Position numbers and translations under genes: made by a program
Notes under the pieces: generated by a model
Told to the model about the DNA's origin: nothing
Seen by the model: only the letters and a program-made list of their open reading frames with translations
Database searches by the model: none
Shown: positions 15,155 to 59,822 of the stretch, one piece after another
How the letters are laid out: every line of letters begins with the position of its first letter
Position numbering within the stretch: the first letter of the stretch is position 1
Sequence record: NZ_CP017043.1
Direction: 5' to 3' (one strand)
Source: a plasmid
Length of the DNA: 64,000 bases

Positions 15155-16114
15155 TCAAGTTACTTCATGATAAATGTACTTTTTCGAGGCCGGATCCCAG
15201 CGCTCAAGTTCGAGTATTTCCTGCACTTTTCGCGTCTTCCCAATGTATTTGAGATAGACGATATAGTGTACCGCCTGGGCGATCGTTGCCTGCTGCGGGT
15301 TCCGAGAGACACGCGCCGTCATGTTCTCAAGGCGAAGAAGCGTATCCACGGCAGAATTGCTGTGAACCGTTGAGCAGCCTCCCCCATGCCCCGTAGACCA
15401 GGCATCGAGGAGCGCCAACGCTTCACCAGAACGAACTTCTCCAACCACAATGCGATCCGGCGTCATACGCAGCACCTGCTTGAGGCAATCCTCCATGGAA
15501 AATGTTGGTGTTGCACGCATCTGCACGCAGTCAACGGCGCTGCATTGCAGCTCTGGGGTATCCTCAATCAGGATGACACGATCATCCAGCTTGGAGATCT
15601 CGGCCAAGATGGCATTGAGAAATGTTGTCTTGCCGGATTTTGTTCCCCCGGCCGCAATGATATTCTTCTTGTGATGGATAGCGTCGATCAGGAAATCATA
15701 TTGTTTTTCCGTCAGCGTCCCCTGTTCAACATAGTTCTCCAGCGAAAATATGGTCTCAGGGTGCTTCCGAATATTGAGGGTTGGTGCAGAAACGATATTG
15801 GGAAGATTCCCTTCAAAGCGGCATTTGGGGAAAAACGAGTTGGACGGAATGTCCGCATCAAGGGCAGGACGCTCCGATACGACCAGCTGCCCTGTCAGCG
15901 CAGCCACATTGAGAATGATCCCGCGCGTATCTTCCGGGGAAATATTTTTCCCCGTATAAGCTCTCCCCTTGCCAAGACTGTCCGTCCAGATCTTGCCGTC
16001 CGGATTCACATATACCTCGAAGACGTTTTTATCCTGCATAAACGGCATGATCGCTTTCATCGAGGTAATGAGCGCATCCATTGTGATGTTATACCGCTCA
16101 CTATTGCTGTTCAT
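15155..16114 (-). CDS. virB11: VirB11/TrbB family secretion ATPase
   Basis: Walker A AAGGTKSGKTTFLNA, Asp box RVILIEDTPEL, His-box region RIVVGEVRSGEA, and GHGGGCSTVHSNSA. Confidence 0.9.
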   Translation of the reverse strand: MNSNSERYNITMDALITSMKAIMPFMQDKNVFEVYVNPDGKIWTDSLGKGRAYTGKNISPEDTRGIILNVAALTGQLVVSERPALDADIPSNSFFPKCRFEGNLPNIVSAPTLNIRKHPETIFSLENYVEQGTLTEKQYDFLIDAIHHKKNIIAAGGTKSGKTTFLNAILAEISKLDDRVILIEDTPELQCSAVDCVQMRATPTFSMEDCLKQVLRMTPDRIVVGEVRSGEALALLDAWSTGHGGGCSTVHSNSAVDTLLRLENMTARVSRNPQQATIAQAVHYIVYLKYIGKTRKVQEILELERWDPASKKYIYHEVT

Positions 16115-19014
16115 TCTTCGTTACGCTCCTTGTTCATTGTCCCTAAAAAGGCATCCAAGCCTAACAGTGGGCTGCTGCCGTTGGTCGTATCCCCCGCTTC
16201 TTCGGTGTCTGCATCGAAAAGATCAAGATCATCGTCCATATCCAGCTCCTCCGGCGCAGCCTCGTCAAAGTCCTCCTGATCGCCAAAAAGGAAATTGGAA
16301 AGCTGTATGTCGCTGTTCTCCCCTTCTGAGGCCGCAGCTTCCTCTGCGTCCGCATTGACGGCAAGAATGGAGGCATCCAGATCAATGAGATCTGATACGG
16401 CATCTGCGGGAGACGGCGTTTCTTCATGCACCTGCAGGATGTTCATACGCCTTTTTGCCTTGCTCTCCATCTCTTCCTGGATGGCCGATTGATGAGTGTC
16501 TTCAACCGCTGCCTGATACCGACGATTTTCGGGGTCTACCTCTTGCGGACTTTCTGTCCGTGTCCGATGATCGGCGGCTGCTTCACTTTCGATATTTTCG
16601 GGCTGGCCGACAGGTTCTTCTTGCCCTGCTGCTGCAATCCCTGCGCTGGAGATCTCTTGCTCATTCAGCTCCTCCTCGGGGTGTTCCCCTGTAATGCGGA
16701 AAATCACATCCTTTTCGTATTGCGCCTTCTCCGCCTCGAGTTTTTGGACATAATCCTTATACGACATTCCGGCTTTGTTCGCCTGATCCTCAAGAACCCG
16801 CTTCCGATCATCCTCTTTCGCGGCCTGATCGGCTGCATGGACATCGAACAGCTCCTTGAAATTCGTGACGCGTGTCACGGTATCACTCACCGCCGGACAT
16901 TTTATCTGTGTCCGTTTGATGAGGAACGGATACTCATAATAACGCAGCTTGTCTCCAAAGATGGCTTTATGCCCGGCCACAAAGACGAGTTCTTTCTCTG
17001 AACTCATCTGGGCGACTTCATCCGGCGTCAAGAGTTCTCGGCCGGTCTGCGACGTAGAGTTTGAGCCCTTGAAAAAGCCGCCGCCCCCGTCGCTGTGCGA
17101 GATGGTCGATATTGTGCGTTTGCCAAGCGTCTTTGAAATTGCCTCGGCCGTTGCACCGCCGGAGTCGATATTAGGGGTAAAATAGATATGCACATGACAG
17201 TTTGAGCCGATGGAGTTGTCTTTGGTGTACTCCTTGTTGAGCTGGTTGACATCCTGGCAGACGATGCAGACTTTGATTCCATAGCCCGCACAGATGGCAA
17301 GCGCAAGCTCTATGCACTTCATATTGCCTAACTGCGGAAACTCATCCAACATGAGCAGAAGGCGCTGCTTCTTTGGCGCGGGTTTATTGGGATCCGTGTC
17401 AAATTTCATGTCCCGTATGAGCTTCGAACAGATCATCTGGATGAAGAGACGTGCAATCGGCTTGACGGCCGCAATATCTTTGACCTCCATGCAGAGATAC
17501 AGCGATACTTCCTGCTGCGGATCGAGCAGGTCGCGAATCGCAAAATCCGATACGCTTGTGTTGTTTTGCACGACCGGATCCTGATAGATCGCCAAAGAGG
17601 TTTGTGCGGTCTGCATAATCGAGGCCGTAGTCTGCTGCGCACCATTCAGAATGTTGGCCGCGCATTCGGCCACCTTCGGATGGGACAACAGCAGATGATA
17701 TGGCGCATTGGTTGGCAGCCCCGTCTGATCTACTGCCTCCCACTGGATTTTCTCCCCTTTTTTGATCTTCTGCTGCAGCGCAACGCGGATCTCATCAATG
17801 GATTTTACCTTGGTATCGAGTGCCTGGGCAAAGGGGCGAAAATCCTTGATATATTCCCCGTAGATTTCCTTGAGCGGATTCTTTTTGCGTTTCACAATCC
17901 CATTTTCATCAAGAATGGGCTTCCCGTCGGCGCCGATCTCTTCCACTTCCAGGAATTCATCCGGGCTGATATGCGGATAATCACGCATATCCGTAAAAAG
18001 CTCTTCCGTTGACTTATCCGGACTGGAGAGAAATGACATAATGTCCGTCGGACACGGGAGCGGCCGCTCCTCTCTATCATGTTTATAAAGCAAGTGCAGG
18101 ATAACGCCGTTCAGGAGAGCTGCAGCCGAGTTCGGCCAAAACTCATCGCCGCCCTTTGATTCTCCATCCGGGCGCACCATGACCGAAACGATAGACTGAA
18201 CGTCCGATAACTCCTCGCTCGTACGATAATTGACCTCGGCCAGTGGGTTCCACCGTGCTGCGGATCCATCCGTGCAGAGCGGCTGAAACTTGAGTACCTT
18301 CTGCTTCAGGACGTTCTTCCGATAGCCGCTGGTCAGGCTCCAGAGTTCGCCCTTCGGATCGAAAAAGAAGATACTGTGCTTCCAGATCAATCCCGTGGGG
18401 ATGATCGTGCAGACGCCCTTACCGCTGCGGGTCGGAGCCATGAGAAGCATATGCTCCACGCCGTCATGCAGCATGAGCTTATGGGTATATGGATTGATAC
18501 CGACAACAACGCCGGAATCCTTGATGATCTTCTCCTTTTTGGTGTAAGGGATCAATCCAAGGAATCTCTTCTTTGTTTTCCTATACTCGTATACGCCCCC
18601 GTTTTTCGAGACGTAAGCGCCGAGATCCGATTTTTCGATGTCCTTGCTCGACGCAAAAGAAGCGCTGCCATGTGATGTCTGCACCAAAAACGCCTTTTTG
18701 AGGAAATACATGCAGACCATGGAGAGCAGCAAAACCAGCTGGGCAAATGACGAGTACGCATCGAGAATATCCGGAATTGCCTTACTGATATGCTCATCAT
18801 ATGACCACACCAGGTAATCATACGGAGGATAAATTTTACTGCCGCCGAGCTCTATATAACTTCCGAGCAAGGGATGATAGTCACACTCCTCTGCTACCGC
18901 CTGTGTCGCATACCATTGCGTTATCAGCATCAAAACAGCGAAAATGAGCACCGTATAAAGAAACGCCTTCTTTTGTGCTGTACGATGAATCTCTTCATCT
19001 ATCATCTCAATCAC
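16111..19014 (-). CDS. virD4: type IV coupling protein VirD4/TraG family
   Basis: N-terminal TMs, Walker A LLMAPTRSGKGV, Walker B LLLMLDEFPQLG. The long acidic C-terminal tail ends in DMDDDLDLFDADTEE. Confidence 0.9.
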   Translation of the reverse strand: MIEMIDEEIHRTAQKKAFLYTVLIFAVLMLITQWYATQAVAEECDYHPLLGSYIELGGSKIYPPYDYLVWSYDEHISKAIPDILDAYSSFAQLVLLLSMVCMYFLKKAFLVQTSHGSASFASSKDIEKSDLGAYVSKNGGVYEYRKTKKRFLGLIPYTKKEKIIKDSGVVVGINPYTHKLMLHDGVEHMLLMAPTRSGKGVCTIIPTGLIWKHSIFFFDPKGELWSLTSGYRKNVLKQKVLKFQPLCTDGSAARWNPLAEVNYRTSEELSDVQSIVSVMVRPDGESKGGDEFWPNSAAALLNGVILHLLYKHDREERPLPCPTDIMSFLSSPDKSTEELFTDMRDYPHISPDEFLEVEEIGADGKPILDENGIVKRKKNPLKEIYGEYIKDFRPFAQALDTKVKSIDEIRVALQQKIKKGEKIQWEAVDQTGLPTNAPYHLLLSHPKVAECAANILNGAQQTTASIMQTAQTSLAIYQDPVVQNNTSVSDFAIRDLLDPQQEVSLYLCMEVKDIAAVKPIARLFIQMICSKLIRDMKFDTDPNKPAPKKQRLLLMLDEFPQLGNMKCIELALAICAGYGIKVCIVCQDVNQLNKEYTKDNSIGSNCHVHIYFTPNIDSGGATAEAISKTLGKRTISTISHSDGGGGFFKGSNSTSQTGRELLTPDEVAQMSSEKELVFVAGHKAIFGDKLRYYEYPFLIKRTQIKCPAVSDTVTRVTNFKELFDVHAADQAAKEDDRKRVLEDQANKAGMSYKDYVQKLEAEKAQYEKDVIFRITGEHPEEELNEQEISSAGIAAAGQEEPVGQPENIESEAAADHRTRTESPQEVDPENRRYQAAVEDTHQSAIQEEMESKAKRRMNILQVHEETPSPADAVSDLIDLDASILAVNADAEEAAASEGENSDIQLSNFLFGDQEDFDEAAPEELDMDDDLDLFDADTEEAGDTTNGSSPLLGLDAFLGTMNKERNEE

Positions 19015-22587: not shown

Positions 22588-23358
22588 TTATGGCTTGGTC
22601 GTCTGAGTTGCCTGTGCAGTCTGTGGCGCATTCGGCTCCTGGGTAGCCTTCGTTTCAGTATCCCGCTCCCAGCGCAGATCCTTGATGTAGATACCCAGAG
22701 GGTTGACGGCGAGTTTCTCCTTGTCGTCCGTCTTGATGATTTCAACGGTGAATAGTCCTGTATACGGCGTAACTTCACGTCGGCTGGCACCAGCCCGGTA
22801 TTCAACCTCTGACCAGCGCACCTGATAGCTTTTACCGCCCTCCATGGGAATAACGCTGTTGATCGTGACCTGAACGGTCGCATTATGCATCTTCTGCACA
22901 CGATTCTCCGCTTCCATGCGCGACGTGAGGATATTCGCACCATCTTTGGTTAAGAAGCTATAAGCTGTGCTCAGCTGCTTATTGTAAACGACCTCATCCA
23001 AAGGAACGCTGCGAATATCCTGGACAAACTGACGGATAAAGTAACTATACACCTCATCGCTCGGCGTATAGTTGGCCATGGAATTTGCTGTCCCGACGTT
23101 GCGAACCTCCCCTGTCTTGATGTCCGTTTCGACTACATAGACAAGCGTGTTCTCGGTGATTGCTTTGTAGCACAGAGCCCCGGCCAGCGCCACGATGACA
23201 ATGACAAGCCCCAATAAAAGCCGCCGCAGATTGTAATTCTGCTCAATGATCTCTCCCTCGCGGGCGTCCCACTTGCGGCTGGCTTTCTCAGCCGGACTTT
23301 GCGAAGTCGTCGGCGGCGTAAAATGCTCCGCGCGATGAAACAGTTGATCAATCTTCAA
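22588..23358 (-). CDS. virB8: VirB8/TrbF-like T4SS protein
   Basis: Cytoplasmic N-terminus, one TM (LLLGLVIVIVALAGALCY), a periplasmic NTF2-like region, and the conserved NPLGIYIKDL motif. Confidence 0.8.
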   Translation of the reverse strand: MKIDQLFHRAEHFTPPTTSQSPAEKASRKWDAREGEIIEQNYNLRRLLLGLVIVIVALAGALCYKAITENTLVYVVETDIKTGEVRNVGTANSMANYTPSDEVYSYFIRQFVQDIRSVPLDEVVYNKQLSTAYSFLTKDGANILTSRMEAENRVQKMHNATVQVTINSVIPMEGGKSYQVRWSEVEYRAGASRREVTPYTGLFTVEIIKTDDKEKLAVNPLGIYIKDLRWERDTETKATQEPNAPQTAQATQTTKP

Positions 23359-29568: not shown

Positions 29569-30129
29569 TTATTCGAGCTCTATTTCTCTTGACTTCGCAA
29601 TGGACTTCATTTCCTTAAAGTAATCTATAAGAGCAAAATATTTCCTTCGCATCAGTCGTTTGTCTACCGAATCTGCTGGGTAACGCTCATCAATATGCGA
29701 CATGAAATCTTCCAGAGATCTTTCAACACCGTCTCCACATTGAACAATATTGCGATCTACAAAATAGCGTATGTCTGACGGAAGGCCTGCATATCCAAGA
29801 GATATAATTTGTACGATGTTTTCGCTTGAATTTGTTAAATCATTTAAGTCAGCATGATGTAATATTGCTCCATCGAGCTTTGCATTTGATATATCCGCAC
29901 CTCGAAGATCTGCATAGGATAAATCTGCATCACGTAAGTCGGCAAATTGTAATTGAGCACCATATAAATCTGCTCCGCCGAGATCCGCGCGCCGCAAATC
30001 TATGCCGCGAAGTTTAGCATGACGTAAGCAAGCTCCACCAAGAAATGCGTTCTGCAGGTTACAGTGCGATAAATTCACCCTTTCCAAATCTGCACGTTGC
30101 CCCCTTCTTCCGAGAAAGCCCATTTCCAA
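29569..30129 (-). CDS. pentapeptide-repeat protein (186 aa)
   Basis: Tandem A(D/N)LxG pentapeptides: ADLRGADLGGADLYGAQLQFADLRDADLSYADLRGADISNAKL. Confidence 0.85.
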   Translation of the reverse strand: MEMGFLGRRGQRADLERVNLSHCNLQNAFLGGACLRHAKLRGIDLRRADLGGADLYGAQLQFADLRDADLSYADLRGADISNAKLDGAILHHADLNDLTNSSENIVQIISLGYAGLPSDIRYFVDRNIVQCGDGVERSLEDFMSHIDERYPADSVDKRLMRRKYFALIDYFKEMKSIAKSREIELE

Positions 30130-30745: not shown

Positions 30746-30898
30746 ATGCTTTGTGTGCGGGTGATTGGCGCGGTGCATTACAATCGCTGCGGGATCATGG
30801 TCTATGGCGACATCGACGCTCCGTCCGACGGCACACGCAATACCGCTTGAAGCACCGCCGCCACCCGCAAAAACATCAACGATGATCTCATTCAGCAT
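30746..30898 (-). pseudogene. C5-cytosine DNA methyltransferase (dcm-like) N-terminal fragment, truncated after about 50 codons
   Basis: MLNEIIVDVFAGGGGASSGIACAVGRSVDVAIDHDPAAIVMHRANHP carries Dcm motif I (FxGxGG) and the following IDxD region. The frame then reads through the 76-bp repeat into nonsense and stops. No downstream methyltransferase motifs are present. Confidence 0.65.
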
Positions 30899-31256
30899 TT
30901 TCTAATTCCTCGAAATAGAACCTGATCGGCCGGTGCGCTTTATCGGTCTCTGTGATTACCCCATATTGCATGGCTATGTGAAAGATAAAAACCTTCTCCA
31001 GACGCTCCAATACGGTTCCGACATATTCGCGAAACTGCTCAATATCAAGCGTGCTTTTATAGTAATTGCATTTCCTGCACGCAGGTTTGTAGTTGGAGAG
31101 AGCGTTCTCTCCCCCTTTACGCAAAGGATAGACATGATCTACCCGCATTTTTTGGATGTTATCAATCTTTCTCCCACAGTACGCGCAGCGTCCCCCATAC
31201 ATTTCATAAACTTGACAGCGTACCTGCTGAGAAATGCGTTTTCTCTTCGTCTGCAT
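30888..31256 (-). CDS. HNH endonuclease
   Basis: CAYCGRKIDN...VDHVYPLRKGGENALSNYKPACRKCNYYK is the HNH/zinc-finger core. Confidence 0.8.
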   Translation of the reverse strand: MQTKRKRISQQVRCQVYEMYGGRCAYCGRKIDNIQKMRVDHVYPLRKGGENALSNYKPACRKCNYYKSTLDIEQFREYVGTVLERLEKVFIFHIAMQYGVITETDKAHRPIRFYFEELENAE

Positions 31257-31307
31257 TTCAACGCCTCCAAATCGACAACAACAGCAGTCTCAATCGCCGC
31301 TGTGGCG

Positions 31308-32216
31308 CTACGCAATATAATCCTCAAAGCGATCGCAGCTACGGAAGATGATTTTATTATTCACCCATCTCTGCAAACGTCGAGCGGTCACAGGAGCGTT
31401 GGGTTTATCGTAGACCATAATATATGGATCATACGCATGATCTTTGAGCCAGTAGACGCGCGCCAGGTCTTCCTCGTGCGTGCTCCAATAATTGACAAGC
31501 ACATATACGCGCCTCTTCCGGAAATCTGTGACAGATGTGCGTTTTGCAAAGGCAGATAACGCTCTAGGAACGCTCCAATCCTTTGGATTATCCCATGCAA
31601 AATGCAGCATTTTCACTTTACAGGCGCTGAGGAGATCCATATTTTCCGGTGTGAACAGTCGCGCGTCGAGACCTTGCGTAAAATCAATCCATGCGCCGCT
31701 ATGAGCAAGCTGTTCTAAAAGTTCCATATGCTCTTTTGCCGCCAAAATATTGGGATCAAGCAGCTTGATTATGCGTTCCCCATGCCAAAATTCATTGAGA
31801 TCCGCGACTTTGTGACTTTCATAACCTTCTTTCCAGCCAACGATGCAAAAGGGACATGCACGCGGGCAACCTCTCGTCAGAAAGCCATAAGCAATTCCTT
31901 GAATGTTATAGAGCGAATAATCCGGACGCATATGTTCAATATGCGCCGGAAGCTGTGCGGCGCTGGTAGTTCCCGTCCCTCCGATTTCTGCACCAATCTC
32001 CGCAAGGCGTATGGAAAGCCCTTGATTCTGCGTAAACACACAGGCTGCATAAAGTTTTTCATATGGCTGAAACAAATTATTCCCCAACAGGACATCTTCA
32101 GGATAAAGCAGATGAACCTGGTCGCCCTGTTTCTTATGCCACGCCGACAGCTTCATCAGGCACAAATTGGGGAATTTCCCACCATCTACGTCAATAAGGC
32201 CAATAGTCATCGCCAT
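31308..32216 (-). CDS. radical SAM domain protein with an N-terminal extension of about 110 aa
   Basis: CxxxCxxC cluster in FLTRGCPRACPFCIV at about aa 117. The N-terminal segment IGLIDVDGGKFPNLCLMKLSAWHKKQGDQV is an extra domain ahead of the radical-SAM core. Confidence 0.6.
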   Translation of the reverse strand: MAMTIGLIDVDGGKFPNLCLMKLSAWHKKQGDQVHLLYPEDVLLGNNLFQPYEKLYAACVFTQNQGLSIRLAEIGAEIGGTGTTSAAQLPAHIEHMRPDYSLYNIQGIAYGFLTRGCPRACPFCIVGWKEGYESHKVADLNEFWHGERIIKLLDPNILAAKEHMELLEQLAHSGAWIDFTQGLDARLFTPENMDLLSACKVKMLHFAWDNPKDWSVPRALSAFAKRTSVTDFRKRRVYVLVNYWSTHEEDLARVYWLKDHAYDPYIMVYDKPNAPVTARRLQRWVNNKIIFRSCDRFEDYIA

Positions 32217-32267: not shown

Positions 32268-32343
32268 CATCCGCTTCGCGTCATCGCCGTTGTGATGCGA
32301 AGATACGCATCCCATTCCAGACCGCTCTACAAGAAACTCTATA
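32268..32343. repeat. 76-bp perfect direct repeat, copy 2
   Basis: Identical to 30670-30745. It overlaps the 3' end and stop of the 117-aa wHTH gene. Confidence 0.9.
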
Positions 32344-32692
32344 CCTCAGAATTGATCTCGTAGATGTTTCGGTAAAAATTGTTATTCTCGTCCCGTGTTT
32401 GAATTCGGGTAATATATCCACAATCCACCAGCTGCTTCATATACTTCGCATAGGTATTCTTGTTGATGTTAAGGTCATAGCAAATCTGATCTCTGGGGAG
32501 ACAATCCGTATCGCCATATGCGCAGAGATAAGAGTAAATTGTCTTTGCAATCACATGTAAGTTTGGATCCTGCATGACAGATGTGCCGACTATGCCAGCA
32601 CCGTGTTCAAGCACATTTCTGGGATGTTGTCTGATACGTTCTTCCGTCACCTGCATATTAGAGTCTTGTATGTTGCTCATGATGACCTCCAA
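32339..32692 (-). CDS. winged-helix DNA-binding protein, RepA_N-like (117 aa)
   Basis: AKTIYSYLCAYGDTDCLPRDQICYDLNINKNTYAKYMKQLVDCGYITRIQTRDENNNFYRNIYEI follows the RepA_N consensus shape. Its last codons and stop lie inside repeat copy 2. Confidence 0.55.
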   Translation of the reverse strand: MEVIMSNIQDSNMQVTEERIRQHPRNVLEHGAGIVGTSVMQDPNLHVIAKTIYSYLCAYGDTDCLPRDQICYDLNINKNTYAKYMKQLVDCGYITRIQTRDENNNFYRNIYEINSEV

Positions 32693-32742
32693 AAACTAAT
32701 AATCACGCACTTTCATGCTCTTCAACGTGCGCAAAATAACAG

Positions 32743-32997
32743 CTACTCGTTCATCGCATCTACAAGCCATTGAGGAGCAAGAACATTTTTTCCATCATGG
32801 TCAAATAAGACTTGATATGTTACAAAGAATTCTTCTGCCGCCTCTTCAGTGTAATGTTCTTCTGCCAACTCTCCATCTTCAGGACAAAGCGTTTTCCAAA
32901 AAGAACTTTCGAGAAGTTGTTTTATGGCAGTGTCTCTTGCCCCAAAGCCAATACGATAATACGGATAAAGCACGCGAGCATTTCCCATAACGTTCAC
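32743..32997 (-). CDS. hypothetical protein (84 aa)
   Basis: ORF track. Acidic, no TM. Confidence 0.35.
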   Translation of the reverse strand: MNVMGNARVLYPYYRIGFGARDTAIKQLLESSFWKTLCPEDGELAEEHYTEEAAEEFFVTYQVLFDHDGKNVLAPQWLVDAMNE

Positions 32998-33045: not shown

Positions 33046-34656
33046 TTAGATACTATGACCATGAATGATCTCACTTCGCTCAGGAGCTTCATACATGCGC
33101 GAGAGAAAATAATCGTTCTCCTGATATTGAACACCAGCCACATCAACACTTCGGGTATCCATAATAATCGAGTATTTGTTCTTTTTACCGAGGATAGAAA
33201 TCACCTGCATATCTGTCTTGCATCCATAAAATTTACAAGTCTGTAACAGCTCATCAAACAAAACAGCCTTCATCCCGCATAAAGAAATATAATTCAGCCC
33301 AGGGTATTCAAATATATTTAGGCGACCTAAAGACGTACACTCATCCATTAGAATCAAGCATCTGTATCTCCCTTTCATTGGCTCTCCCTTATATCCAAAT
33401 ATCCAGAGCATTTCCAAGAACACACGAAAAATTTGGGATGGTTGGCAAGAATTACCCGGTGGAGTCACCAGATACAAAGATACGGGCTGCGTGTGATTCA
33501 TAAGATCTTTTATACAGAAATCACTTCTTTCCGTATGGTGTCTAAGCACTGGATCAAGATAATCTTTGAGTGCTGCATTTATGATGGACAGAATATAACA
33601 CGCCTGATTATTCGGTATTGACACGATTCCGTGAAGTTTATGGTCAATAATTTTTTGTACCTTTTCCGGTTCCTCTAAAGATATATATGGATACTCCAAG
33701 GGTGTATCATATATTTTCCAATCCAAAGGCATCCAGGCATAAACAGGAGCTCCGTCTTTATCGACCATTCCAACCGTATGATCCTGTATATATTGAGCAA
33801 CATCATAAAGAGATAGAGACTTTGGATGCCGATCTTGATCAGCGTGATATGTATTTTTGAGATGCAGGATGATTTTCGTAAGAACATCGGCAACTTCTTC
33901 TACAACGTCATCACATACCATCATTTTCCCCATCCGGATCAAGGCCGACGAAAGCGTCTTTGCTACAAATAGCTTGTCAGGGCTGTCCATCCGTATCTCG
34001 TCAAGAGGATTCCAGCACGCAGATGTATCATCTGTTGCTGTCGGCTCGAATTTGATTATCGTGTTCCCGAGCCGCTTTCGATAACCTGCGGTGACTTCCC
34101 AGTATTCGCCTTTAATATCATGCACGACTACACTAGATTTCCAACCGTCAAGGAGCGTCGGGATGATAAATCGATCGCTTCGTCTGTGATTCGACTCACC
34201 CTCAATCAATATATGATTACTGGAATTATCTCGTAAATATAGGGGCATAGGGTTCATGTGGCGTTCGACAAACCAATTATATGCTGCTGTCCTTTTATCC
34301 GCAGGAAGTATCTTAGTTAATGGGGGCACTACGCCACTAAGAATTGTGTCATACTGGCCAATTACAACACCTTCATCAGAGATCAGTCCCATCTTGGCAT
34401 ATTTTTTATAACTTCCCTGCTTATTCCCGTCCTCATATTTTTTACAGAAATGTATAAGTATCGCAGTCAATAAACTAAACGCAACAAATGGTGTAATTAG
34501 ACCGATCAAGGCAACATCTTCTGATACTGTAAAATTAAGAATCAGCACTACAATGCTGCAAAACGTCAATCCCAAGACGCTGAGCTTAACGGTAAACACA
34601 GCCGTTATAAGCATGAGAAAAAAGCAGAAAACAGTCCATAAATCAATATGTATCAT
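33046..34656 (-). CDS. VirD4/TraG-family coupling-protein paralog with a degenerate Walker A
   Basis: N-terminal TMs. HILIEGESNHRRSDRFIIPTLLDGWKSSVVVHDIKGEYWEVTAGYRKRLGNTIIKFEPTATDDTSACWNPLDEIR aligns to the 967-aa T4CP (HMLLMAPTRSGKGVCTIIPTGL...DPKGELWSLTSGYRKN...LKFQPLCTDGSAARWNPLAEVN). The P-loop lysine and glycines are replaced by RRSD. Walker B LILMDECTSLG is retained. Confidence 0.75.
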   Translation of the reverse strand: MIHIDLWTVFCFFLMLITAVFTVKLSVLGLTFCSIVVLILNFTVSEDVALIGLITPFVAFSLLTAILIHFCKKYEDGNKQGSYKKYAKMGLISDEGVVIGQYDTILSGVVPPLTKILPADKRTAAYNWFVERHMNPMPLYLRDNSSNHILIEGESNHRRSDRFIIPTLLDGWKSSVVVHDIKGEYWEVTAGYRKRLGNTIIKFEPTATDDTSACWNPLDEIRMDSPDKLFVAKTLSSALIRMGKMMVCDDVVEEVADVLTKIILHLKNTYHADQDRHPKSLSLYDVAQYIQDHTVGMVDKDGAPVYAWMPLDWKIYDTPLEYPYISLEEPEKVQKIIDHKLHGIVSIPNNQACYILSIINAALKDYLDPVLRHHTERSDFCIKDLMNHTQPVSLYLVTPPGNSCQPSQIFRVFLEMLWIFGYKGEPMKGRYRCLILMDECTSLGRLNIFEYPGLNYISLCGMKAVLFDELLQTCKFYGCKTDMQVISILGKKNKYSIIMDTRSVDVAGVQYQENDYFLSRMYEAPERSEIIHGHSI

Positions 34657-35009
34657 ACGATCACTACCTCTCTCGGCTCATATATAATCTCCTTTCCAAG
34701 CTGCTCTGCAAGAGCAAGTTCCTCCCGAACGCCTCTGCTGTTCTCCCAGTTCTGCAGCACATAGATGGCATCGGCGCAGCGCACCATCTCCTTGGTGATC
34801 TGCAAATAGGCCTCCCATTCCATTCCCCACGGCAATACCGCAGGGTTCAGAACGATACTGTCTTGCTCTTGCAGCCGCTGTTCTGCCACGGCAAATATCT
34901 GCTTATAGTCAGCAATACCAGTGATTGCCCCAGCAATGAAAACAATTTTTCCCTCAAGATTCATTTTTACTGTCCTCCATGTCGAAATGGTCTCCAAATC
35001 TACAATCAC
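34653..35009 (-). CDS. DUF4406-like protein (nucleoside 2-deoxyribosyltransferase-like fold)
   Basis: KIVFIAGAITG...VLNPAVLP...ADAIYVLQNWENSRGVREELALAEQLGKEIIY matches the DUF4406 pattern. ATGA overlap with the upstream gene. Confidence 0.55.
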   Translation of the reverse strand: MIVDLETISTWRTVKMNLEGKIVFIAGAITGIADYKQIFAVAEQRLQEQDSIVLNPAVLPWGMEWEAYLQITKEMVRCADAIYVLQNWENSRGVREELALAEQLGKEIIYEPREVVIV

Positions 35010-35512
35010 TGCAAATAATAGGCGCCTGATTCTATATCGCCGTATTGAAATTCATCATGATCTGTAATCTCAACAAGATCTGCTCCAAAAAAATGAGAGC
35101 CGTCTATATAAAATTTCCCAGCACGATATATTCCTGTCTCTATCATTTCCTCTCTCACTCGATATACGGGCTTTCCGTTTTCCAGGAGCACGACAACTTG
35201 ACTTCCCTTCTCCCAATTTGCCATAGATGCTAGGGCATCCTTTTTATGCAGGTAGAGCACCCCTTCACGAACGAGTTTTGCTTTATCGACGCCATCTGAG
35301 ATCGTGCAGCCTGTTGTTAGTACAGATTCACTGTCTGTTGATCGGATTTCACGTTCGTAAATTACCGCTCGATAAGCGACGAAAGTCTCTCCGGGATCTA
35401 CTGGAGATGTAAAAATATTTATGGCCGTAATGATGCCTCCAAACACAACCATTAGTACCATACTGGCGATTATTATGAACAAGAATTCGTCATCGTCTCT
35501 CATATCCAACAC
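35006..35512 (-). CDS. membrane-anchored hypothetical protein (168 aa)
   Basis: TM FIIIASMVLMVVFGGIITAINIF followed by an extracytoplasmic domain. It heads the operon with the two downstream genes. Confidence 0.5.
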   Translation of the reverse strand: MLDMRDDDEFLFIIIASMVLMVVFGGIITAINIFTSPVDPGETFVAYRAVIYEREIRSTDSESVLTTGCTISDGVDKAKLVREGVLYLHKKDALASMANWEKGSQVVVLLENGKPVYRVREEMIETGIYRAGKFYIDGSHFFGADLVEITDHDEFQYGDIESGAYYLQ

Positions 35513-35651
35513 CTTTCTAAACGCTCGTTAAATTCTCTTGCCTCGGATATAATCAGGTAGGTGACTGTAAATCACGATAAAAGACTTTTCTCAGCAACAA
35601 AAAATTGGTACAATAAACGCAAAATTTTTCGTTCCACGAAGGGGACTGACA

Positions 35652-35963
35652 ATGACAATGAAAATATCAGACTGCCTACGGAAAACCAGAAAACAACAAG
35701 GGTTATCACAGGCAGAAATGGCTGAGAAGCTACGGATAAACATGCGTACTTACCAAAACTACGAACGCGGAATAACAAAGTTTCCGGCCGAGGAGCTATA
35801 TAAGCTGGTGCTCATCTTTGGCATATCAGCAGATGATTTCTTCGAAATAGAGCGACATGATGCGCCTGTGCAGCAAGCACTCGATAATCTCAGAGCAGAG
35901 ATGAAACGCCAGCATAAGGAAATCCGGGAGCTCCTCGCTGCATGCCTTCCTGATAAAGGTTGA
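35652..35963 (+). CDS. XRE-family HTH transcriptional regulator
   Basis: LRKTRKQQGLSQAEMAEKLRINMRTYQNYERG is an HTH_3 motif. Confidence 0.8.
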   Translation: MTMKISDCLRKTRKQQGLSQAEMAEKLRINMRTYQNYERGITKFPAEELYKLVLIFGISADDFFEIERHDAPVQQALDNLRAEMKRQHKEIRELLAACLPDKG

Positions 35964-38337: not shown

Positions 38338-39423
38338 TTGTCCGTCCATAAAGACACAAAGCGCGGAACATGGTACGTAAAGATCAAATACACCGACTGG
38401 ACAGGCGAAAAGAGGGAAACGACCCGCAGAGGATTCGCAAAGAAAAAAGACGCGCAGCTATTTGAGCAGGATTTTCACCGGCAGAAACAAGGCGCTCATT
38501 CCATGACCTTCAAGGCATTATATGATCTATACATGGAGGACATAAAACCACGCATAAGACCTACAACATATCGAAGCAAGGAATATATGTTCACCTCAAA
38601 GGTGTTGCCGTTCTTCGCAAATTTGCCTTGCGACCAGATTACTCCTGCAAAAATACGGCAGTGGCAAAACGAACTTGTCAAAGGCGATTATCAAGAGACA
38701 TACCTCCGTACTATCAACAACCAAGTTGCAGCCATCTTCAACTTTGCGGTAAATTATTATGGTCTACCAACTAACCCCGCAAAACGAGCAGGGATGATCG
38801 GAAAGAGTCATGCCGATGCAATGAGATTCTGGACGGTTGATGATTTTCAAAAATTTATCAATCACACCACTACTCCACTATACAGAATTTCTTTTTTAAT
38901 CCTTTTCTGGACAGGGATGCGTGTTGGAGAGTTTTTGGCACTGACCTTGGAGGACTTTGATTTTGACAAAAATTTGATACACATAACCAAAAGCTACGCA
39001 CGGCTAGATAACAAGACTATAATCGGCCCGCCTAAGACACCAAAGAGCCGCCGTGATGTCAGCATCCCTGCATTTCTTGTCGATGAAGTCCAGCAGTTTA
39101 TCCAAGCGCAGCATTCAATCAATCCAAATGCACGATTATTTGAAACCGGTAAACATGGATTATCTTATGAAATGAAGCGTGTAGCTGCACAGGTTGGCAT
39201 AGAGAAAATTCGCCTTCATGATCTTAGGCACTCTCATGCCTCCTATCTCATTCACCGAGGAATACCGATCATAGCGATTTCACAACGCCTCGGTCATGAA
39301 AAAATCGAGACTACACTACAAACCTACGCTCACCTATATCCACAAGAGCGCGATATGATTATTGCTGCCATCGAAAGCGATCCGGCAACAAAAGGAGGGT
39401 CAAACGGGGGTCACGGAAAATAA
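38338..39423 (+). CDS. int: tyrosine site-specific recombinase (integrase)
   Basis: Core-binding N-terminal domain. Catalytic region with TGMRVGEFLALT (Arg I), LHDLRHSHASYL (His/Arg II) and TTLQTYAHL (Tyr). Confidence 0.9.
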   Translation: MSVHKDTKRGTWYVKIKYTDWTGEKRETTRRGFAKKKDAQLFEQDFHRQKQGAHSMTFKALYDLYMEDIKPRIRPTTYRSKEYMFTSKVLPFFANLPCDQITPAKIRQWQNELVKGDYQETYLRTINNQVAAIFNFAVNYYGLPTNPAKRAGMIGKSHADAMRFWTVDDFQKFINHTTTPLYRISFLILFWTGMRVGEFLALTLEDFDFDKNLIHITKSYARLDNKTIIGPPKTPKSRRDVSIPAFLVDEVQQFIQAQHSINPNARLFETGKHGLSYEMKRVAAQVGIEKIRLHDLRHSHASYLIHRGIPIIAISQRLGHEKIETTLQTYAHLYPQERDMIIAAIESDPATKGGSNGGHGK

Positions 39424-43098: not shown

Positions 43099-44022
43099 CT
43101 ATCTGATATTATCATTGCTCTTTCTATACTTGTCGCACGCTTCTTGGAACGTCTTTCCCATTGTAATCAGAATATCTTTAAGCGCTCTCTGCGCTTCACT
43201 GGATACGCGAGTCGCAGAAATTTCTTTCATGAAATCATCTATCCTCATTGAAGGTTTATCGTCAATAACATCTCTGCTGATAATTGTACGCAATCCCAAA
43301 TCACAAGCAAGGTGAATAGTATCTCCGTTGTCCGGAATAAATTGAACCTGCATAAAGCGGTTTTGCAGGTCAGATTGTCGAAAATGGCATTTTTCAATAT
43401 AGCTATCCAAAAACCCACTGTGTGTAAAGTCACATTTCTTAAAAGTGGCTTCATCAAAAGTACATTGTATAAAGGCTACATTCAAAAACTTGTTATCGGT
43501 AAATACAGACGTAGAAAAATCGGCACAAACCGGATTTACCGCCAAAAAACGATTCCCTTCGAGATGACAATTTTTTTCAAGCCAGACATGGTTGAGATTT
43601 GCTTCACGAAACACATTATCCGAAAATCGACACTGGTTGAATTTTGATTTTCCCAACATTGTGTTCTGCAGATCACATTGATTGATTCTACATACAGACA
43701 TAGTTGTTTGTAGAATTTTGGCATTTAAGAAATTGCAACTTTCAAAAGTAACGTCAGATATATTTGCATTGCTTAATTGTGCATCAGTGAAATCACAATC
43801 CTTAAAATGCAGACGTTCCATGGAAACGCCCGACAAGTCCGCTCCACGAAAAATCATGGAGTGAAACGGATGGATTTCGTTTGAGGAGCAAAAATCAAAA
43901 CCCCGTAAATCACAATTTGTAAAATCTGCTTGTCTGCCGGATTCGTGATTCGTTTGCATCCATCGGTCATGATCGCTTAGAATCCGGCGCACCTCATCCG
44001 AAGAAACCTGCCGTCTATCCAT
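43099..44022 (-). CDS. pentapeptide-repeat protein (307 aa)
   Basis: Long run of A(D/N)LxG-type pentapeptides: CDLRGFDF...FRGADLSGVSMERLHFKDCDFTDAQLSNANISDVTFESCNFLNAKIL... Confidence 0.85.
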   Translation of the reverse strand: MDRRQVSSDEVRRILSDHDRWMQTNHESGRQADFTNCDLRGFDFCSSNEIHPFHSMIFRGADLSGVSMERLHFKDCDFTDAQLSNANISDVTFESCNFLNAKILQTTMSVCRINQCDLQNTMLGKSKFNQCRFSDNVFREANLNHVWLEKNCHLEGNRFLAVNPVCADFSTSVFTDNKFLNVAFIQCTFDEATFKKCDFTHSGFLDSYIEKCHFRQSDLQNRFMQVQFIPDNGDTIHLACDLGLRTIISRDVIDDKPSMRIDDFMKEISATRVSSEAQRALKDILITMGKTFQEACDKYRKSNDNIR

Positions 44023-45077: not shown

Positions 45078-48056
45078 ATGGCTTTATATCATTTTACGGT
45101 CAAAAATGACAAGCGCCCCAAGACAAAGACACAGATTCCGGCCGTCGAACATTCCGACTATATTAACCGCGAGGGAAAATATAAAAATGCAGATGAACGC
45201 CAGCCGCAAAGCATGGATAATGTTATATCCTCAAATCGCAAACTGGATGCGATCGACGGACGAACCGTTTTGCTTTATTCCAGTCCATATGGAAAAATCA
45301 CCAATACGGAAAAAGGGATTGCAGTCACGGATGATCCATCCTATGACACAATCTCAATGGCGCTCATGGTAGCAAAAGAGACCATGGACGAGCCTCTGAG
45401 CGTGAATGGCAGTCTTGCCTTCAAAGCAAAATGTATCCATGCTGCTGTTTTGGCCGATCTGCCAATTACCTTCAAAGATTCAAATATGCAGAGCGTCCTC
45501 GACAAGAAGCGAAAGGAGAAACAGGATGAGCGAGAACGATTTAGAGAACAAGGTGGACGAGTTATCATCCGCAAGAACATTCCAAAGCCCGACATTGACG
45601 AAAATCAGCGTGGAAATGCCGAGACTGTTACCATCGGAACCTTACCCACAATGCGTCAACTGCCCAAACTCCCTGTGGATGGCACTCGATCAGAGGACGC
45701 TGCGTTGCTGGTGTCAAGTGATGAGAGTGGTCAGCTGGGACACGACGGAGACACACGCAATCCCCCTGTGCGATGGGATCTATCTGACGGACGAGAACAG
45801 TACGCTCGAAGAACCGCAAGACGAATCCTAGACAACATCGAAAGCAACATGGATGCGATATACGCACAGCGCCATGTTGAGTACATCAACCGAGAAAAAG
45901 CATTTTCGGAGCGCGGCGATTGCGTCTATAAGCAGCACCATCTTCCCAAATGGGCGAAGGATTCGCCCAGCGTCTTTTTTCGAGCAGCAGACCGTTACTC
46001 TCCAAAAAACGCAGCACGATATAAGGAGCTCGAATTTGCTCTGCAAAACGAATTGACCTTGGAGCAAAACCTAGAGATTGTGAATAGATTCATCCAAGAG
46101 AACCTGCCGGATCATTACTATACGCTCGCCGTACATGATAAAATCGGCGCGATGTCTGACGGGACACATAATCTTCATGTTCATCTGGTGTTCTCCACCC
46201 GTCTGATTGACGAAGTAGAAAAAAAGAAAGAGCGGAAGCGATCCGCTTACTTTCGCTATCCGCTGCGTGATAATGTAAAGGAAAAAACCGAAGATGCGAT
46301 GCGCAGCCATGGAGCGCCTATCGACCGCAAATGGTCAGATCGCACCTACGTCCCACATTTGCGGGCATCTTATGAAGAAATCGTAAACTCTGTACTAGAG
46401 AGATATGGATACAGCGCAAGAATAGACCATCGCAGCCTAAAAGCGCAAGAACAGGAAGCCCGCATGAATGGGGATATTGTTCTTGCCAATCTCTTGCACC
46501 GTATCCCGGAGGAGCACATCAGCAAGCACGGTGTGCTTGAGGAGAGCAATCCGCAGGTGCAGCGGATTAAGAAATACCGCATCCACAAGAAAGAGTATCA
46601 AGATTTACTGTTTGCGGCCGAACTTGTCGCCCACGGCATAGAGGAGGATGAGCGAAAAGAGAAGACGGGACGGCTCAAGAAAAATATCAAAGCGGTCGTA
46701 TCATCGAACGAGTTCATCGAAAGTGAAAACGACGCCAATTCACATATTGGCGAACTCCGAGACAGCTTCGTTGAAGCCGTCCATGCACATGAGCACTTAC
46801 AGCGGATGCTGGTGTCTGCCGAGGATGCACGCGAAAACGCAAAACTCGAGTATATGACGCCGGAGGAGAAAGAAACCTATCAAGCGTATAAGAAGCTTCT
46901 GTCGGACATCCAGCGTTGGACAGATTTTAAGGAAAACCTGTCAGAACCTAAAAATCCGACAAACGAAGAGCTAGCTGCATATCGGCAGCTATTGCCCGCG
47001 CTCGATGAAAAGCTGTCGAACCTCCAGCAGGAAAAAGCCCTGCTTCAGGACAAAATAGATGAACTGGAAATTCGATTGCAGAATACAGATATACAGAAAC
47101 AGATTCAGCTCATCACGCACAAGACGCTGCAGGCCAATGTCAAAATACGCAAAGAGCTGGCGAAGGCCGAGCAAAACCTGGAAATATCCATACGCGCGCT
47201 GGAGCAAGGCTTATTCTCGGAAACACACGCTGAAAATCAGCAAGACACCTATACAACGCATCAGCTCTATTCCATCATACGAAAGCGATTTTACGGCTAT
47301 AAGAAGGAAGTGGAGCGACTGCAAAAACAGCTGGACGCAGCAAAAAAGAAGGTCTTGTCTATGGATCGCGCATTACAGATGGCAAGCAACATCTACACAA
47401 AGGGCGGTCTGAAAAAACTGCGCGAGGATCTGCGCAGCCTGAAAAAGAAGGAAGGCTACCTGCAAAGCGATCAGGCGAAACTAGAGCAAGACATCGCAGC
47501 GTTTCGCAAGCTGCCGACGCCGCCCTCTACGGATCGCGACCTGTACGCAGAATATCAAGAACGGTACAGCGCCCTCGCCTCACGGCGTGACGAGCTGAAT
47601 CAACGGATCCATGACCTGGCAAATCAAAAAATCGAGCTGGAGCAGCGGAAGAAACGACTGGCCGCTCAGATCGACTCGCCGCAAGGGAAGGCCAAAATCA
47701 AAGATATTGCGCTTGGTATCATGAAGAAAAATGCTCCCTATCAAGAGCAATATGATACGCTGCAGGGACGCCTGGAACGAGCAACAGGAAAAATGAACCG
47801 TGCAAAGGTGCAAATGGAGGCGCTGGCCAAAGCGGTACAAAAAGATAAGGGCAACACACAGCGTTATAAAGTAGCTGCACCCGTAAAAGCCAAAGACATG
47901 CCTAGCATTATCGCCGAAGCAGTGTCCGGAAACTCACACTATGCGAGTTTGGTCGCAACGATGCGGGATGATAATAGGGCGCTAAAGACGTGGACGCTCA
48001 TGTCCGAGGCTGCCAAGGCAGAAGAGGCAAATAAAAGATACTACCAAGATCTATAA
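45078..48056 (+). CDS. mobA: conjugative relaxase, MobA/MobL (MOBQ) family, with a long C-terminal coiled-coil domain
   Basis: N-terminus MALYHFTVKNDKRPKTKTQIPAVEHSDYINREGKY (MobA_MobL motif I with catalytic Tyr). His triad HNLHVHLVFSTR. 992 aa with a heptad-rich C-terminal half. Confidence 0.85.
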   Translation: MALYHFTVKNDKRPKTKTQIPAVEHSDYINREGKYKNADERQPQSMDNVISSNRKLDAIDGRTVLLYSSPYGKITNTEKGIAVTDDPSYDTISMALMVAKETMDEPLSVNGSLAFKAKCIHAAVLADLPITFKDSNMQSVLDKKRKEKQDERERFREQGGRVIIRKNIPKPDIDENQRGNAETVTIGTLPTMRQLPKLPVDGTRSEDAALLVSSDESGQLGHDGDTRNPPVRWDLSDGREQYARRTARRILDNIESNMDAIYAQRHVEYINREKAFSERGDCVYKQHHLPKWAKDSPSVFFRAADRYSPKNAARYKELEFALQNELTLEQNLEIVNRFIQENLPDHYYTLAVHDKIGAMSDGTHNLHVHLVFSTRLIDEVEKKKERKRSAYFRYPLRDNVKEKTEDAMRSHGAPIDRKWSDRTYVPHLRASYEEIVNSVLERYGYSARIDHRSLKAQEQEARMNGDIVLANLLHRIPEEHISKHGVLEESNPQVQRIKKYRIHKKEYQDLLFAAELVAHGIEEDERKEKTGRLKKNIKAVVSSNEFIESENDANSHIGELRDSFVEAVHAHEHLQRMLVSAEDARENAKLEYMTPEEKETYQAYKKLLSDIQRWTDFKENLSEPKNPTNEELAAYRQLLPALDEKLSNLQQEKALLQDKIDELEIRLQNTDIQKQIQLITHKTLQANVKIRKELAKAEQNLEISIRALEQGLFSETHAENQQDTYTTHQLYSIIRKRFYGYKKEVERLQKQLDAAKKKVLSMDRALQMASNIYTKGGLKKLREDLRSLKKKEGYLQSDQAKLEQDIAAFRKLPTPPSTDRDLYAEYQERYSALASRRDELNQRIHDLANQKIELEQRKKRLAAQIDSPQGKAKIKDIALGIMKKNAPYQEQYDTLQGRLERATGKMNRAKVQMEALAKAVQKDKGNTQRYKVAAPVKAKDMPSIIAEAVSGNSHYASLVATMRDDNRALKTWTLMSEAAKAEEANKRYYQDL

Positions 48057-59459: not shown

Positions 59460-59822
59460 ATGAAGAATATTCTACGGTACAAGGAATACATCGGATCTGT
59501 GGAGATCTCCGAGGCAGAGGGCTTCCTCTATGGCAGGGTTCTCGGCATACAGGAGAAAATCGACTATCAGGCAGTCAGAGCCGATGAGCTGGTCAAACAT
59601 TTTCATCAAGCGGTTGATATGTACCTTGACCGATGCAGAAAAGACGGCGTTTCTCCGGAAATCCCCTACAAGGGCAGCTTCAATGTTCGCATTGCCCCTG
59701 CGCTGCATCGCAGACTTGCCGTCCATGCAGTGCAAAATGGCGTAAACCTCAACCGCCTGGTCGAGACGATCCTCGCCTCCTACGAGCCTCTCTATGCTCC
59801 GGAAAAGGACGTGTTATCATGA
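59460..59822 (+). CDS. hicB: HicB-family antitoxin-like protein
   Basis: YKEYIGSVEISEAEGFLYGRVLGIQEKIDYQA...LVKHFHQAVDMYLDRCRKDGVSPEIPYKGSFNVRIAPALHRRLAVHAVQNGVNLNRLV shows the HicB fold followed by an RHH-like DNA-binding tail. Confidence 0.7.
   Translation: MKNILRYKEYIGSVEISEAEGFLYGRVLGIQEKIDYQAVRADELVKHFHQAVDMYLDRCRKDGVSPEIPYKGSFNVRIAPALHRRLAVHAVQNGVNLNRLVETILASYEPLYAPEKDVLS

Follow-up and report, generated by a model that had tools for sequence, protein, structure and literature searches.

Introduction

What can a coupling protein still do for a conjugative element once its nucleotide-binding loop has been replaced? This question is raised by a locus at positions 33,046–35,512 of a 64,000-nucleotide stretch of the plasmid record NZ_CP017043.1; the whole stretch is referred to below as the window. 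The window is a conjugative element and represents one branch of a family comprising integrative and conjugative elements (ICEs) and plasmids of Selenomonas. It encodes a canonical 967-aa VirD4/TraG-type type IV coupling protein (T4CP) and, outside the usual place for such a gene, a second T4CP-like protein of 536 aa. An earlier note on this DNA had described the second protein as a VirD4 paralog with an ablated P-loop and an intact Walker B motif, encoded in an operon of its own with a membrane-anchored protein and a DUF4406 protein, and had proposed a role as a substrate-specific receptor, an exclusion factor or a decoy. Three minus-strand open reading frames (ORFs) of 536, 118 and 168 aa were indeed recovered at the positions listed in Table 1. 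According to the sequence comparisons presented here, the 536-aa protein is best read as a conserved, catalytically dead and miniaturised T4CP derivative, i.e., an accessory pseudo-ATPase.

A T4CP homologue with a replaced Walker A loop

The identity of the 536-aa protein was evaluated by profile, pairwise and structural comparisons. By look-up, its sequence was an exact match to WP_069181639.1/AOH49117.1, which is annotated as "hypothetical protein BCS37_11470" of the Selenomonas sp. oral taxon 920 plasmid. The Pfam profile PF02534 matched the protein at E = 1.3e-35 and covered profile positions 37–321 of 468 only. In the Pfam scan, a weak NB-ARC match was the sole other result, and neither TraG-D_C nor TrwB_AAD_bind was matched. 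The best NCBIfam score, which was obtained for TraG, was 153.5 bits against a cut-off of 586. BLASTP against the co-resident 967-aa VirD4 gave E = 1e-23 at 26% identity, and the T4CP motifs PLYLRDNS, IIPTLL, DxKGExW, GYRK, KFEP, WNPLDE and SDFC were kept together with the MDE of Walker B. A PDB sequence search with the protein was empty. The AlphaFold2 (AF2) model had a predicted local distance difference test (pLDDT) score of 73.7 and a predicted template modelling (pTM) score of 0.73, residues 296–338 within the all-alpha domain being of low confidence. The best Foldseek matches of this model were Cagbeta (E = 7e-14; structure 8DOL), DotL (2e-9; 6SZ9) and TrwB (5e-9; 1E9R); the HerA proteins of the Sir2-HerA and DUF4297-HerA systems were also matched at lower rank. 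The protein is a VirD4/TraG-type T4CP homologue far beyond chance, as the earlier note had recognised. Moreover, the T4CP fold is retained in the model, where the N-terminal RecA-like half, the Walker B strand and the C-terminal strands are present and the all-alpha domain is shortened.

The Walker A motif APTRSGKGV of the full-length proteins was replaced by GESNHRRSD. In pairwise and multiple alignments, the two segments corresponded column for column with no insertion or deletion, and they were flanked by the invariant residues H148 and I164/P166/T167. Exactly 15 residues lay between H148 and I164 in short and full-length proteins alike, and the strand-loop-helix topology at the former Walker A was retained in the AF2 model. 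The P-loop was thus ablated at its homologous position, as had been claimed. The positions of R241 and K244 of Cagbeta were occupied by N and R, respectively, and the Gly between them by R, which means that the Gly, Lys and cis-Arg residues of Walker A were all gone. In Cagbeta, a VirD4-type ATPase with the Walker A sequence PTRSGK, mutation of R241 (R241A/K), K244 (K244A) or the Walker B residue E551 abolishes ATPase activity (PMC9886983). The TrwB K136T mutant, in which the Walker A Lys is changed to Thr, is transfer-deficient (PMC7431656). A P-loop relocated within the protein was considered and rejected. The regular expression [AG]xxxxGK[ST] found nothing in the whole 536-aa protein, and the sequence ALVRMGKT of some relatives was not conserved, ended a helix of the all-alpha domain and aligned with EGKGK of full-length proteins having their own P-loop. 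The Walker B strand LILMDECTSLG was intact, with D438 and E439 invariant across the short and full-length proteins.

Losses beyond the Walker A motif

The earlier note had named a loss at Walker A, and the damage was found to be wider. The 536-aa protein was about 260 aa shorter than its nearest full-length relatives, from which it differed by three deletions: the long insert that follows the membrane domain, a stretch of about 50 residues in the all-alpha domain, and a segment (TGRALMTADE) that carries the conserved TGRxLMTxDE motif of the C-terminal nucleotide-binding domain (NBD). The post-Walker-B sensor Gln was also lost, the position after the GMK strand being NQ in the full-length proteins and DE, DD, GE or AT within the short family. 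Nor were the N-terminal transmembrane (TM) helices shared with T4CPs in the way that had been supposed. Three contiguous helices (residues 6–22, 25–42 and 47–76 in the AF2 model) were found with no periplasmic loop between them, whereas the 967-aa and 796-aa T4CPs have two TM helices and a loop of about 45 aa. Furthermore, the membrane region was wholly missing in the common 463-aa variants of the family. Taken at the level of sequence, these changes indicate that the 536-aa protein cannot be a conventional ATPase. Because it lacks the Walker A motif, the complete NBD and the TM-domain (TMD) architecture of a functional T4CP and keeps the fold and Walker B, it is named here as T4CP-derived rather than as a T4CP.

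Conservation of the short family

A protein search gave 17 family clusters with 61–99% identity at full-length coverage and with sizes of 522–537 or 463 aa. Below them, the matches dropped sharply to canonical T4CPs of about 750–800 aa at 29–45% identity. The sequence [R/S]RSD stood for GKGV in every family member examined, these being the 17 clusters and the 16 complete loci that came from non-BNJ metagenome assemblies; recurrence of the variant in homologous elements was the check that the earlier note had suggested. The five residues preceding [R/S]RSD varied by allele (GESNH, GESNR, GESYY, GSAQY, VDESS and VDETS). A canonical Walker A was present in 103 of the 103 full-length matches. The family formed a compact group, its members with a named host were all from Selenomonas, and in a representative library of 1.84 billion proteins the family consisted of one full-length representative and fragments. 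The 463-aa form without TM helices, which lay directly after the DUF4406 gene with the same overlap, was no rarer than the TM-bearing form, with 251 members in its cluster and one sequence occurring on 181 contigs. The C-terminus was altered in one cluster (P0017).

The selection acting on the gene was evaluated from the ratio of nonsynonymous to synonymous substitution rates (dN/dS). The pairwise values of the T4CP-like gene were 0.22–0.28 at dS of 0.65–1.46. In a neutral simulation at those divergences, about 20 in-frame stops were expected and no ORF stayed intact in 2000 trials, whereas the ORF was intact in all 16 complete loci from the non-BNJ assemblies. The strongest constraint was observed at residues ~150–210, directly after the former P-loop. 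The values for VirB8, VirB9 and M23 of the same elements were 0.045–0.11, that of the T4CP-like gene being 3–5 times higher. Apparently frameshifted copies occurred at five loci (L046–48, L050 and L052) from the BNJS/BNJU long-read assemblies, where the integrase, M23, p190 and DUF4406 genes were broken as well. Since the frameshifts ran across essentially every gene of these contigs, they were regarded as an indel-rich assembly artefact that can be mistaken for pseudogenisation. A pseudogene was rejected on the grounds of the dN/dS values far below 1, the intact ORFs and the number of stops expected under neutrality. The T4CP-like family is conserved under purifying selection and is not a wreck; the decay in relatives that, according to the earlier note, would speak against a functional locus was seen only in assemblies with all genes broken.

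Degenerate T4CP-like proteins were rare elsewhere, with two cases among the other 147 representatives. One (P0425; L060:454-2151, on a 2.2-kb contig) was a TM-less protein of 565 aa with GESRIYKKDG at Walker A and LLDD at Walker B. The other (P0337) was a tandem double T4CP-like protein of 1155 aa, in which the P-loops were changed from K to Q or truncated and DE was changed to ND or DN.

Origin from another T4CP lineage

The co-resident 967-aa VirD4, with Walker A and B intact, was matched by PF02534 (4.9e-98), TraG-D_C (2.7e-25) and TrwB_AAD_bind (8.4e-18) and occupied the standard VirB10–VirD4–VirB11 slot; the 536-aa gene lay outside it. The earlier note had taken the two for paralogs. The overall identity of the 536-aa protein to its own VirD4 was the 26% given above, as against 35–45% to T4CPs of about 795 aa from another Selenomonas element, and every region gave the same order: 57% versus 37% for the N-terminal half of the NBD, 39% versus 21% for the all-alpha domain and 47% versus 29% for the C-terminal half of the NBD. 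A recent duplication of the co-resident VirD4 was rejected for this reason. The ~795-aa T4CPs, of which WP_037349422.1 is an example, fill the VirB10–VirD4–VirB11 slot of a distinct and very abundant element, which was found in 228 index blocks and also encodes ParB, ArdC, MobA_MobL and a compact VirB system; by annotation, their hosts are S. noxia, S. artemidis, S. sputigena, oral taxon 137 and others. In the neighbour-joining (NJ) tree, the short family stood on a long stem branch as sister to the whole clade of ~750–800-aa proteins. Given the closer relationship of all regions to the ~795-aa T4CPs and this placement, the gene was captured from another T4CP lineage of the same genus and then remodelled. 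The comparisons thus trace the 536-aa protein to the T4CPs of another abundant conjugative element in Selenomonas rather than to the VirD4 with which it now resides. A scan of genome contigs returned distant Legionella T4CPs only, and nothing was found by megablast against the PLSDB plasmids.

Neighbouring genes and the question of an operon

The middle ORF matched DUF4406 (PF14359) at E = 1.4e-28, which is above the cut-off, and the phrog_355 nucleoside 2-deoxyribosyltransferase at 1.7e-28. Its AF2 model had a pLDDT of 91.4, and the Foldseek matches comprised nucleoside 2'-deoxyribosyltransferases (NDTs) with a TM-score (query) of 0.68–0.74, DNPH1 and BcmB; a weak similarity to TIR/ThsB was also recorded. 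A PDB sequence search gave only a non-significant match (E = 0.049). The protein models confidently as a minimal NDT/DNPH1-like domain, in agreement with the NDT-like assignment made earlier. No description of the function of DUF4406, including a role in conjugative elements, was found in the literature searched. Its dN/dS was 0.11–0.18, and Selenomonas contained 115 DUF4406 clusters versus 17 clusters of the T4CP-like gene. In the order of genes behind the regulatory switch, the DUF4406 gene always took the first place or one close to it, and its 4-nt ATGA overlap with the T4CP-like gene was kept in every locus having the latter.

The upstream ORF was membrane-anchored as claimed, with one N-terminal TM helix. 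No Pfam, NCBIfam, PADLOC or PHROG match above the thresholds used was obtained for it. Its relatives were 165–207 aa long, with 36–40% identity to the homologues in L005 and L007, and the gene was missing in L008 and L057–59. This 165-aa protein is fast-evolving and dispensable in relatives. A divergent HTH_31/HTH_3 homologue occurred at the position of the XRE-family helix-turn-helix (HTH) regulator in L005 and L057–59, and the XRE-family regulator is possibly a switch for the downstream transfer genes.

The proposal of a self-contained three-gene operon with 4-nt overlaps held only in part. The ATGA junction between the DUF4406 and T4CP-like genes stood, whereas the membrane gene was variable or absent and the DUF4406 start was most likely the ATG at 34964 behind a GGAGGA ribosome-binding site, which leaves a gap of 41 nt after the membrane gene. 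Downstream of the T4CP-like gene, the gene for an 84-aa protein, the HTH_36/DnaD-like gene and then the type IV secretion system (T4SS) genes followed on the same strand, and no terminator-like site was found after the T4CP-like gene. The HTH_36/DnaD-like protein was 117 aa in the window versus 358–366 aa in L007, L009 and L054–56. Downstream of this shortened gene, two genes encode a 302-aa radical-SAM protein (phrog_9298, E = 6e-90) and a 122-aa HNH endonuclease with IscB/Cas9-type HNH similarity; the pair was present in L001–L004 and absent from L005 and L007.

The S. artemidis-type loci L057–59 had the order p190–HTH–HTH (divergent)–DUF4406–M23 and onward, with neither the membrane gene nor the T4CP-like gene. 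Their backbone was collinear with the window at 32–67% amino-acid identity, with DUF4406 at the same position. Hence, DUF4406 is independent of the T4CP-like protein, and the T4CP-like gene is an accessory acquisition rather than a core transfer component. In L057, the element adjoined a CRISPR adaptation module and a serine recombinase. Another arrangement was seen in L037 (L037:3742-7365; BNJV01002887.1), where a Dam-like DPPY methyltransferase gene (5034–5903) was inserted between an intact DUF4406 gene with p81 and a DUF4406 remnant; a TM-less 463-aa T4CP-like gene followed the remnant only. PADLOC gave no significant match for the three proteins, with the T4CP-like protein reaching only 13 bits (E = 0.008) to PDC-S26, and a known defence system was rejected on this basis.

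The element and its other genes

The window comprises nearly all of a 65,821-bp plasmid of Selenomonas sp. oral taxon 920, which still bears a tyrosine integrase. Close relatives, L001, L007, L008 and L055 among them, were ICEs integrated into the chromosomes of Selenomonas from oral metagenomes (S. flueggei, the S. felix group and others), with the integrase adjoining host genes, guaA being one example. Either the window shows an ICE in a circular state, or the element has a dual plasmid/ICE lifestyle. A separate integrative mobilizable element with its own T4CP was rejected because the T4CP-like gene sits within the backbone that is collinear across relatives and the integrase marks the end of the same ICE in the integrated relatives. 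In addition to the genes in Table 1, a type IA topoisomerase, a single-stranded DNA-binding protein, a primase, CagX/VirB9, TrbI/VirB10, VirB11, VirB4 and two TrbL/VirB6 proteins were encoded. Fusions of an N6-methylase and SNF2, like the one in the window, are typical of large anti-restriction or "polyvalent" proteins of conjugative elements. The two pentapeptide-repeat proteins may be DNA mimics acting on gyrase or restriction systems. One of the two HipA_C-domain proteins (toxin kinase-like) was encoded near a resolvase and a ParM-like actin.

Table 1. Positions of the features in the 64,000-nucleotide window
Feature	Position	Strand	Basis or remark
Putative T4CP-derived pseudo-ATPase, 536 aa	33046–34656	−	ORF, PF02534 match
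Former Walker A loop GESNHRRSD (residues 153–161), replacing APTRSGKGV	34174–34200	−	Gap-free alignment
Walker B strand LILMDECTSLG (residues 434–444)	33325–33357	−	Alignment
N-terminal membrane region (residues ~6–70), three contiguous hydrophobic helices	34447–34641	−	Hydropathy scan, AF2
DUF4406 protein, 103 aa from ATG 34964	34653–34964	−	Pfam PF14359; ORF 34653–35009, extending to GTG 35009 (118 aa)
Single-pass membrane protein, 165 aa	35006–35503	−	TM residues 3–35; ORF 35006–35512 (168 aa)
Promoter-like site upstream of membrane gene, TTGTCA-17-AAAAAT	35624–35652	−	Consensus match only
Divergent HTH regulator of the XRE family (103 aa) that faces the gene array	35652–35963	+	ORF
Downstream neighbours: 84-aa protein (32743–32997), HTH_36/DnaD-like protein (32339–32692)	32339–32997	−	Conserved
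Radical-SAM protein and HNH endonuclease	30888–32216	−	
Canonical T4CP, 967-aa VirD4/TraG	16111–19014	−	Pfam, APTRSGKGV; Walker A and B intact
VirB8 homologue	22588–23358		Identified solely by alignment to VirB8-annotated genes of relatives
N6-adenine methyltransferase–SNF2 helicase fusion, 2403 aa	795–8006	−	
Tyrosine integrase	38338–39423		
MobA/MobL relaxase	45078–48056	+	
Pentapeptide-repeat protein	29569–30129	−	HetL/MfpA/Qnr-like
Pentapeptide-repeat protein	43099–44022	−	HetL/MfpA/Qnr-like
HipA_C-domain protein	49476–50396	−	
HipA_C-domain protein	59633–60973	+	
ParM-like actin	51413–52651		

Proposed function of the 536-aa protein

Among the roles that had been put forward (receptor, exclusion factor and decoy), a decoy or dominant-negative action appears to fit best. 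It is proposed tentatively that the 536-aa protein may act via competitive interference with T4CP-dependent recruitment, the elements with ~795-aa T4CPs being the likeliest target. The protein would work by binding and not by hydrolysis. It would compete for the partners of a T4CP, which may be T4CP protomers, the relaxosome or a docking site, and such competition would modulate or block T4CP-dependent substrate recruitment. The most plausible form of this action would be that of a dominant-negative protein or decoy against co-circulating elements with a ~795-aa T4CP, in other words, molecular mimicry that inhibits fertility. The known fertility-inhibition factors PifC and Osa, encoded by accessory genes that move fast, are directed against T4CPs (PMC5696584). 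Non-functional T4CP chimeras reduce transfer in dominance assays, which their authors explained by hetero-oligomers or competition for the machinery (PMC7431656), and CagZ inhibits Cagbeta by blocking its hexamerisation (PMC9886983). Competitive interference is credible because of these precedents and that of the TrwB Lys mutants. An entry-exclusion factor was considered unlikely because no part of the protein is exposed to the periplasm and variants without TM helices are common.

A more far-reaching version, which we hold to be rather unlikely, would make the protein a natural "anti-coupling protein": the T4CP of a rival would have been captured and stripped of its ATPase site, its periplasmic loop and part of its C-terminal NBD, and the product would poison the hexamers of the rival or sequester its relaxosome. 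This would constitute a new class of fertility inhibition by mimicry, possibly together with the DUF4406 enzyme.

Several points weigh against interference with the ~795-type elements. Identity to the putative target is only 35–45%, and co-assembly is not assured. The Walker A loop of Cagbeta contacts the neighbouring subunit, and its replacement could impair the contacts within a hexamer (PMC9886983). The NJ tree does not nest the short family inside the Selenomonas group of 795-aa proteins. The common occurrence of the two element families was observed at the level of genus or species rather than of the single cell. Furthermore, the placement at the head of the array, before the transfer genes of its own element, would fit a role in its own transfer equally well, and a decoy leaves the invariant translational coupling to DUF4406 unexplained.

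The explanation that survives next best, somewhat unlikely as it is, would be that the protein serves as a non-catalytic adaptor or regulatory subunit in the coupling complex of its own ICE. It would be co-expressed with the T4SS and would either bring a particular substrate, be it a protein or a second DNA, to the 967-aa VirD4 or the T4SS, or tune or brake the transfer of the element itself. The location of the gene is consistent with this role, since it lies just downstream of the divergent regulator gene and upstream of the T4SS genes, on their strand and with no terminator-like site between; the shortened all-alpha domain is also kept. There is, in addition, a precedent for a conserved and fast-evolving ATPase-dead T4SS paralog in RvhB4-II of the Rickettsiales (PMC4676284). 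The low identity to its own VirD4 and its different T4CP lineage argue against an adaptor, as does the collinear backbone of L057–59, which lives without the T4CP-like gene. Moreover, the protein lacks the periplasmic loop and many variants lack TM helices altogether, and TrwB and PcfC mutants without the TMD are non-functional in transfer (PMC7431656).

A third explanation would separate the protein from substrate coupling. The DUF4406 and T4CP-like proteins would form a two-protein module, in which the latter would serve as a ring-shaped, DNA- or membrane-associated scaffold to position or regulate the NDT/DNPH1-like enzyme, with a possible role in the manipulation of nucleotide pools or DNA bases, in defence or in anti-defence; HerA-effector systems would offer a loose analogy. 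In its favour are the adjacency and ATGA overlap of the two genes in every locus with the T4CP-like gene, the strong constraint on DUF4406, its fold matches (NDT, DNPH1, BcmB and the weak TIR/ThsB likeness) and the lower-ranked HerA matches of the T4CP-like model. A module of this kind is nevertheless distinctly improbable. The S. artemidis-type elements keep DUF4406 although they lack the T4CP-like gene, PADLOC gave no significant match for either protein, and in L037 the intact DUF4406 gene stands apart from the T4CP-like gene. Canonical P-loops are a feature of the HerA partners of Sir2-HerA and DUF4297-HerA defence systems, unlike the ablated loop here.

A functionless and decaying remnant of a captured T4CP gene, kept open by chance or by polar effects on the downstream genes, would account for the large deletions, the lost catalytic residues, dN/dS values above those of the core T4SS genes, the N-terminally truncated 463-aa forms and the altered C-terminus of P0017. 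It is very improbable and largely refuted, given a dN/dS far below 1, ORFs that stayed intact in all non-BNJ loci at dS of about 1, conservation of the very motif that replaces the P-loop and frameshifts confined to assemblies in which all genes are frameshifted. Least credible of all is that the protein is still an NTPase with a non-canonical site formed by Arg158/Arg159 and D438/E439 of Walker B, since the invariant Asp-Glu and two basic residues at the former Gly-Lys positions are set against the loss of the Gly residues that shape the P-loop, of the sensor Gln and of the conserved C-terminal NBD segment, the inactivity of the Cagbeta mutants cited above and the variation among alleles in the five residues ahead of RSD.

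Relation to known systems

The 536-aa protein shares sequence, fold and conserved motifs with the VirD4/TraG T4CPs of PF02534 and is likewise encoded by a conjugative element. It differs from them in the absence of Walker A, the sensor Gln and a detectable TraG-D_C match, in its reduced length, in having three loopless TM helices or none, in its location outside the VirB10–VirD4–VirB11 slot and in NCBIfam scores that fall well short of the cut-offs. The literature searched gave no account of a conserved coupling-protein homologue that lacks a P-loop.

The closest conceptual parallel is RvhB4-II of the rvh T4SS of the Rickettsiales, a strictly conserved and faster-evolving VirB4 duplicate without the ATPase active-site residues, which is presumed to be structural or regulatory (PMC4676284). 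Both are dead and conserved homologues of T4SS ATPases. RvhB4-II differs in being a VirB4 rather than a T4CP and in having a size like that of RvhB4-I and other VirB4 proteins. Moreover, it belongs to a chromosomal effector-secretion system of obligate intracellular bacteria and is not an accessory gene from the lineage of another element. The likeness to PifC and Osa (PMC5696584) would lie in the proposed mode, i.e., an accessory and patchy gene that interferes with the T4CP of a co-resident rival. No resemblance to them was recorded in the Pfam results, of which a direct comparison was not part, and the inhibitor proposed here would mimic its target. The class of fertility-inhibition factors, to which FipA is assigned as well, is defined by function, namely a lowered transfer of a co-resident element through an action on its T4CP. 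The CagZ–Cagbeta pair and the dominant-negative T4CPs have in common with the proposed mode that T4CP activity needs hexamerisation and is blocked by partners or defective protomers (PMC9886983, PMC7431656). CagZ is, however, an unrelated small protein, and the dominant-negative T4CPs are laboratory constructs rather than natural conserved genes.

Significance

The finding is real and conserved, and as a variant of a well-known protein family it comes as a moderate surprise. An ATPase-dead miniature T4CP that is maintained by natural selection shows which parts of the fold are kept without catalysis: the all-alpha domain, the Walker B strand and, within the NBD, the N-terminal half and the C-terminal strands. 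If the protein were an adaptor for the transfer of its own element, the dead VirB4 paralogs of the Rickettsiales would have their first counterpart among T4CPs. Coupling proteins are gatekeepers of conjugation and are proposed targets against the spread of resistance genes. If the protein were a dominant-negative mimic of the T4CP of a rival element, mobile elements of the human oral microbiome would be competing by a new mechanism, and the protein would offer a ready template for protein inhibitors of conjugation.

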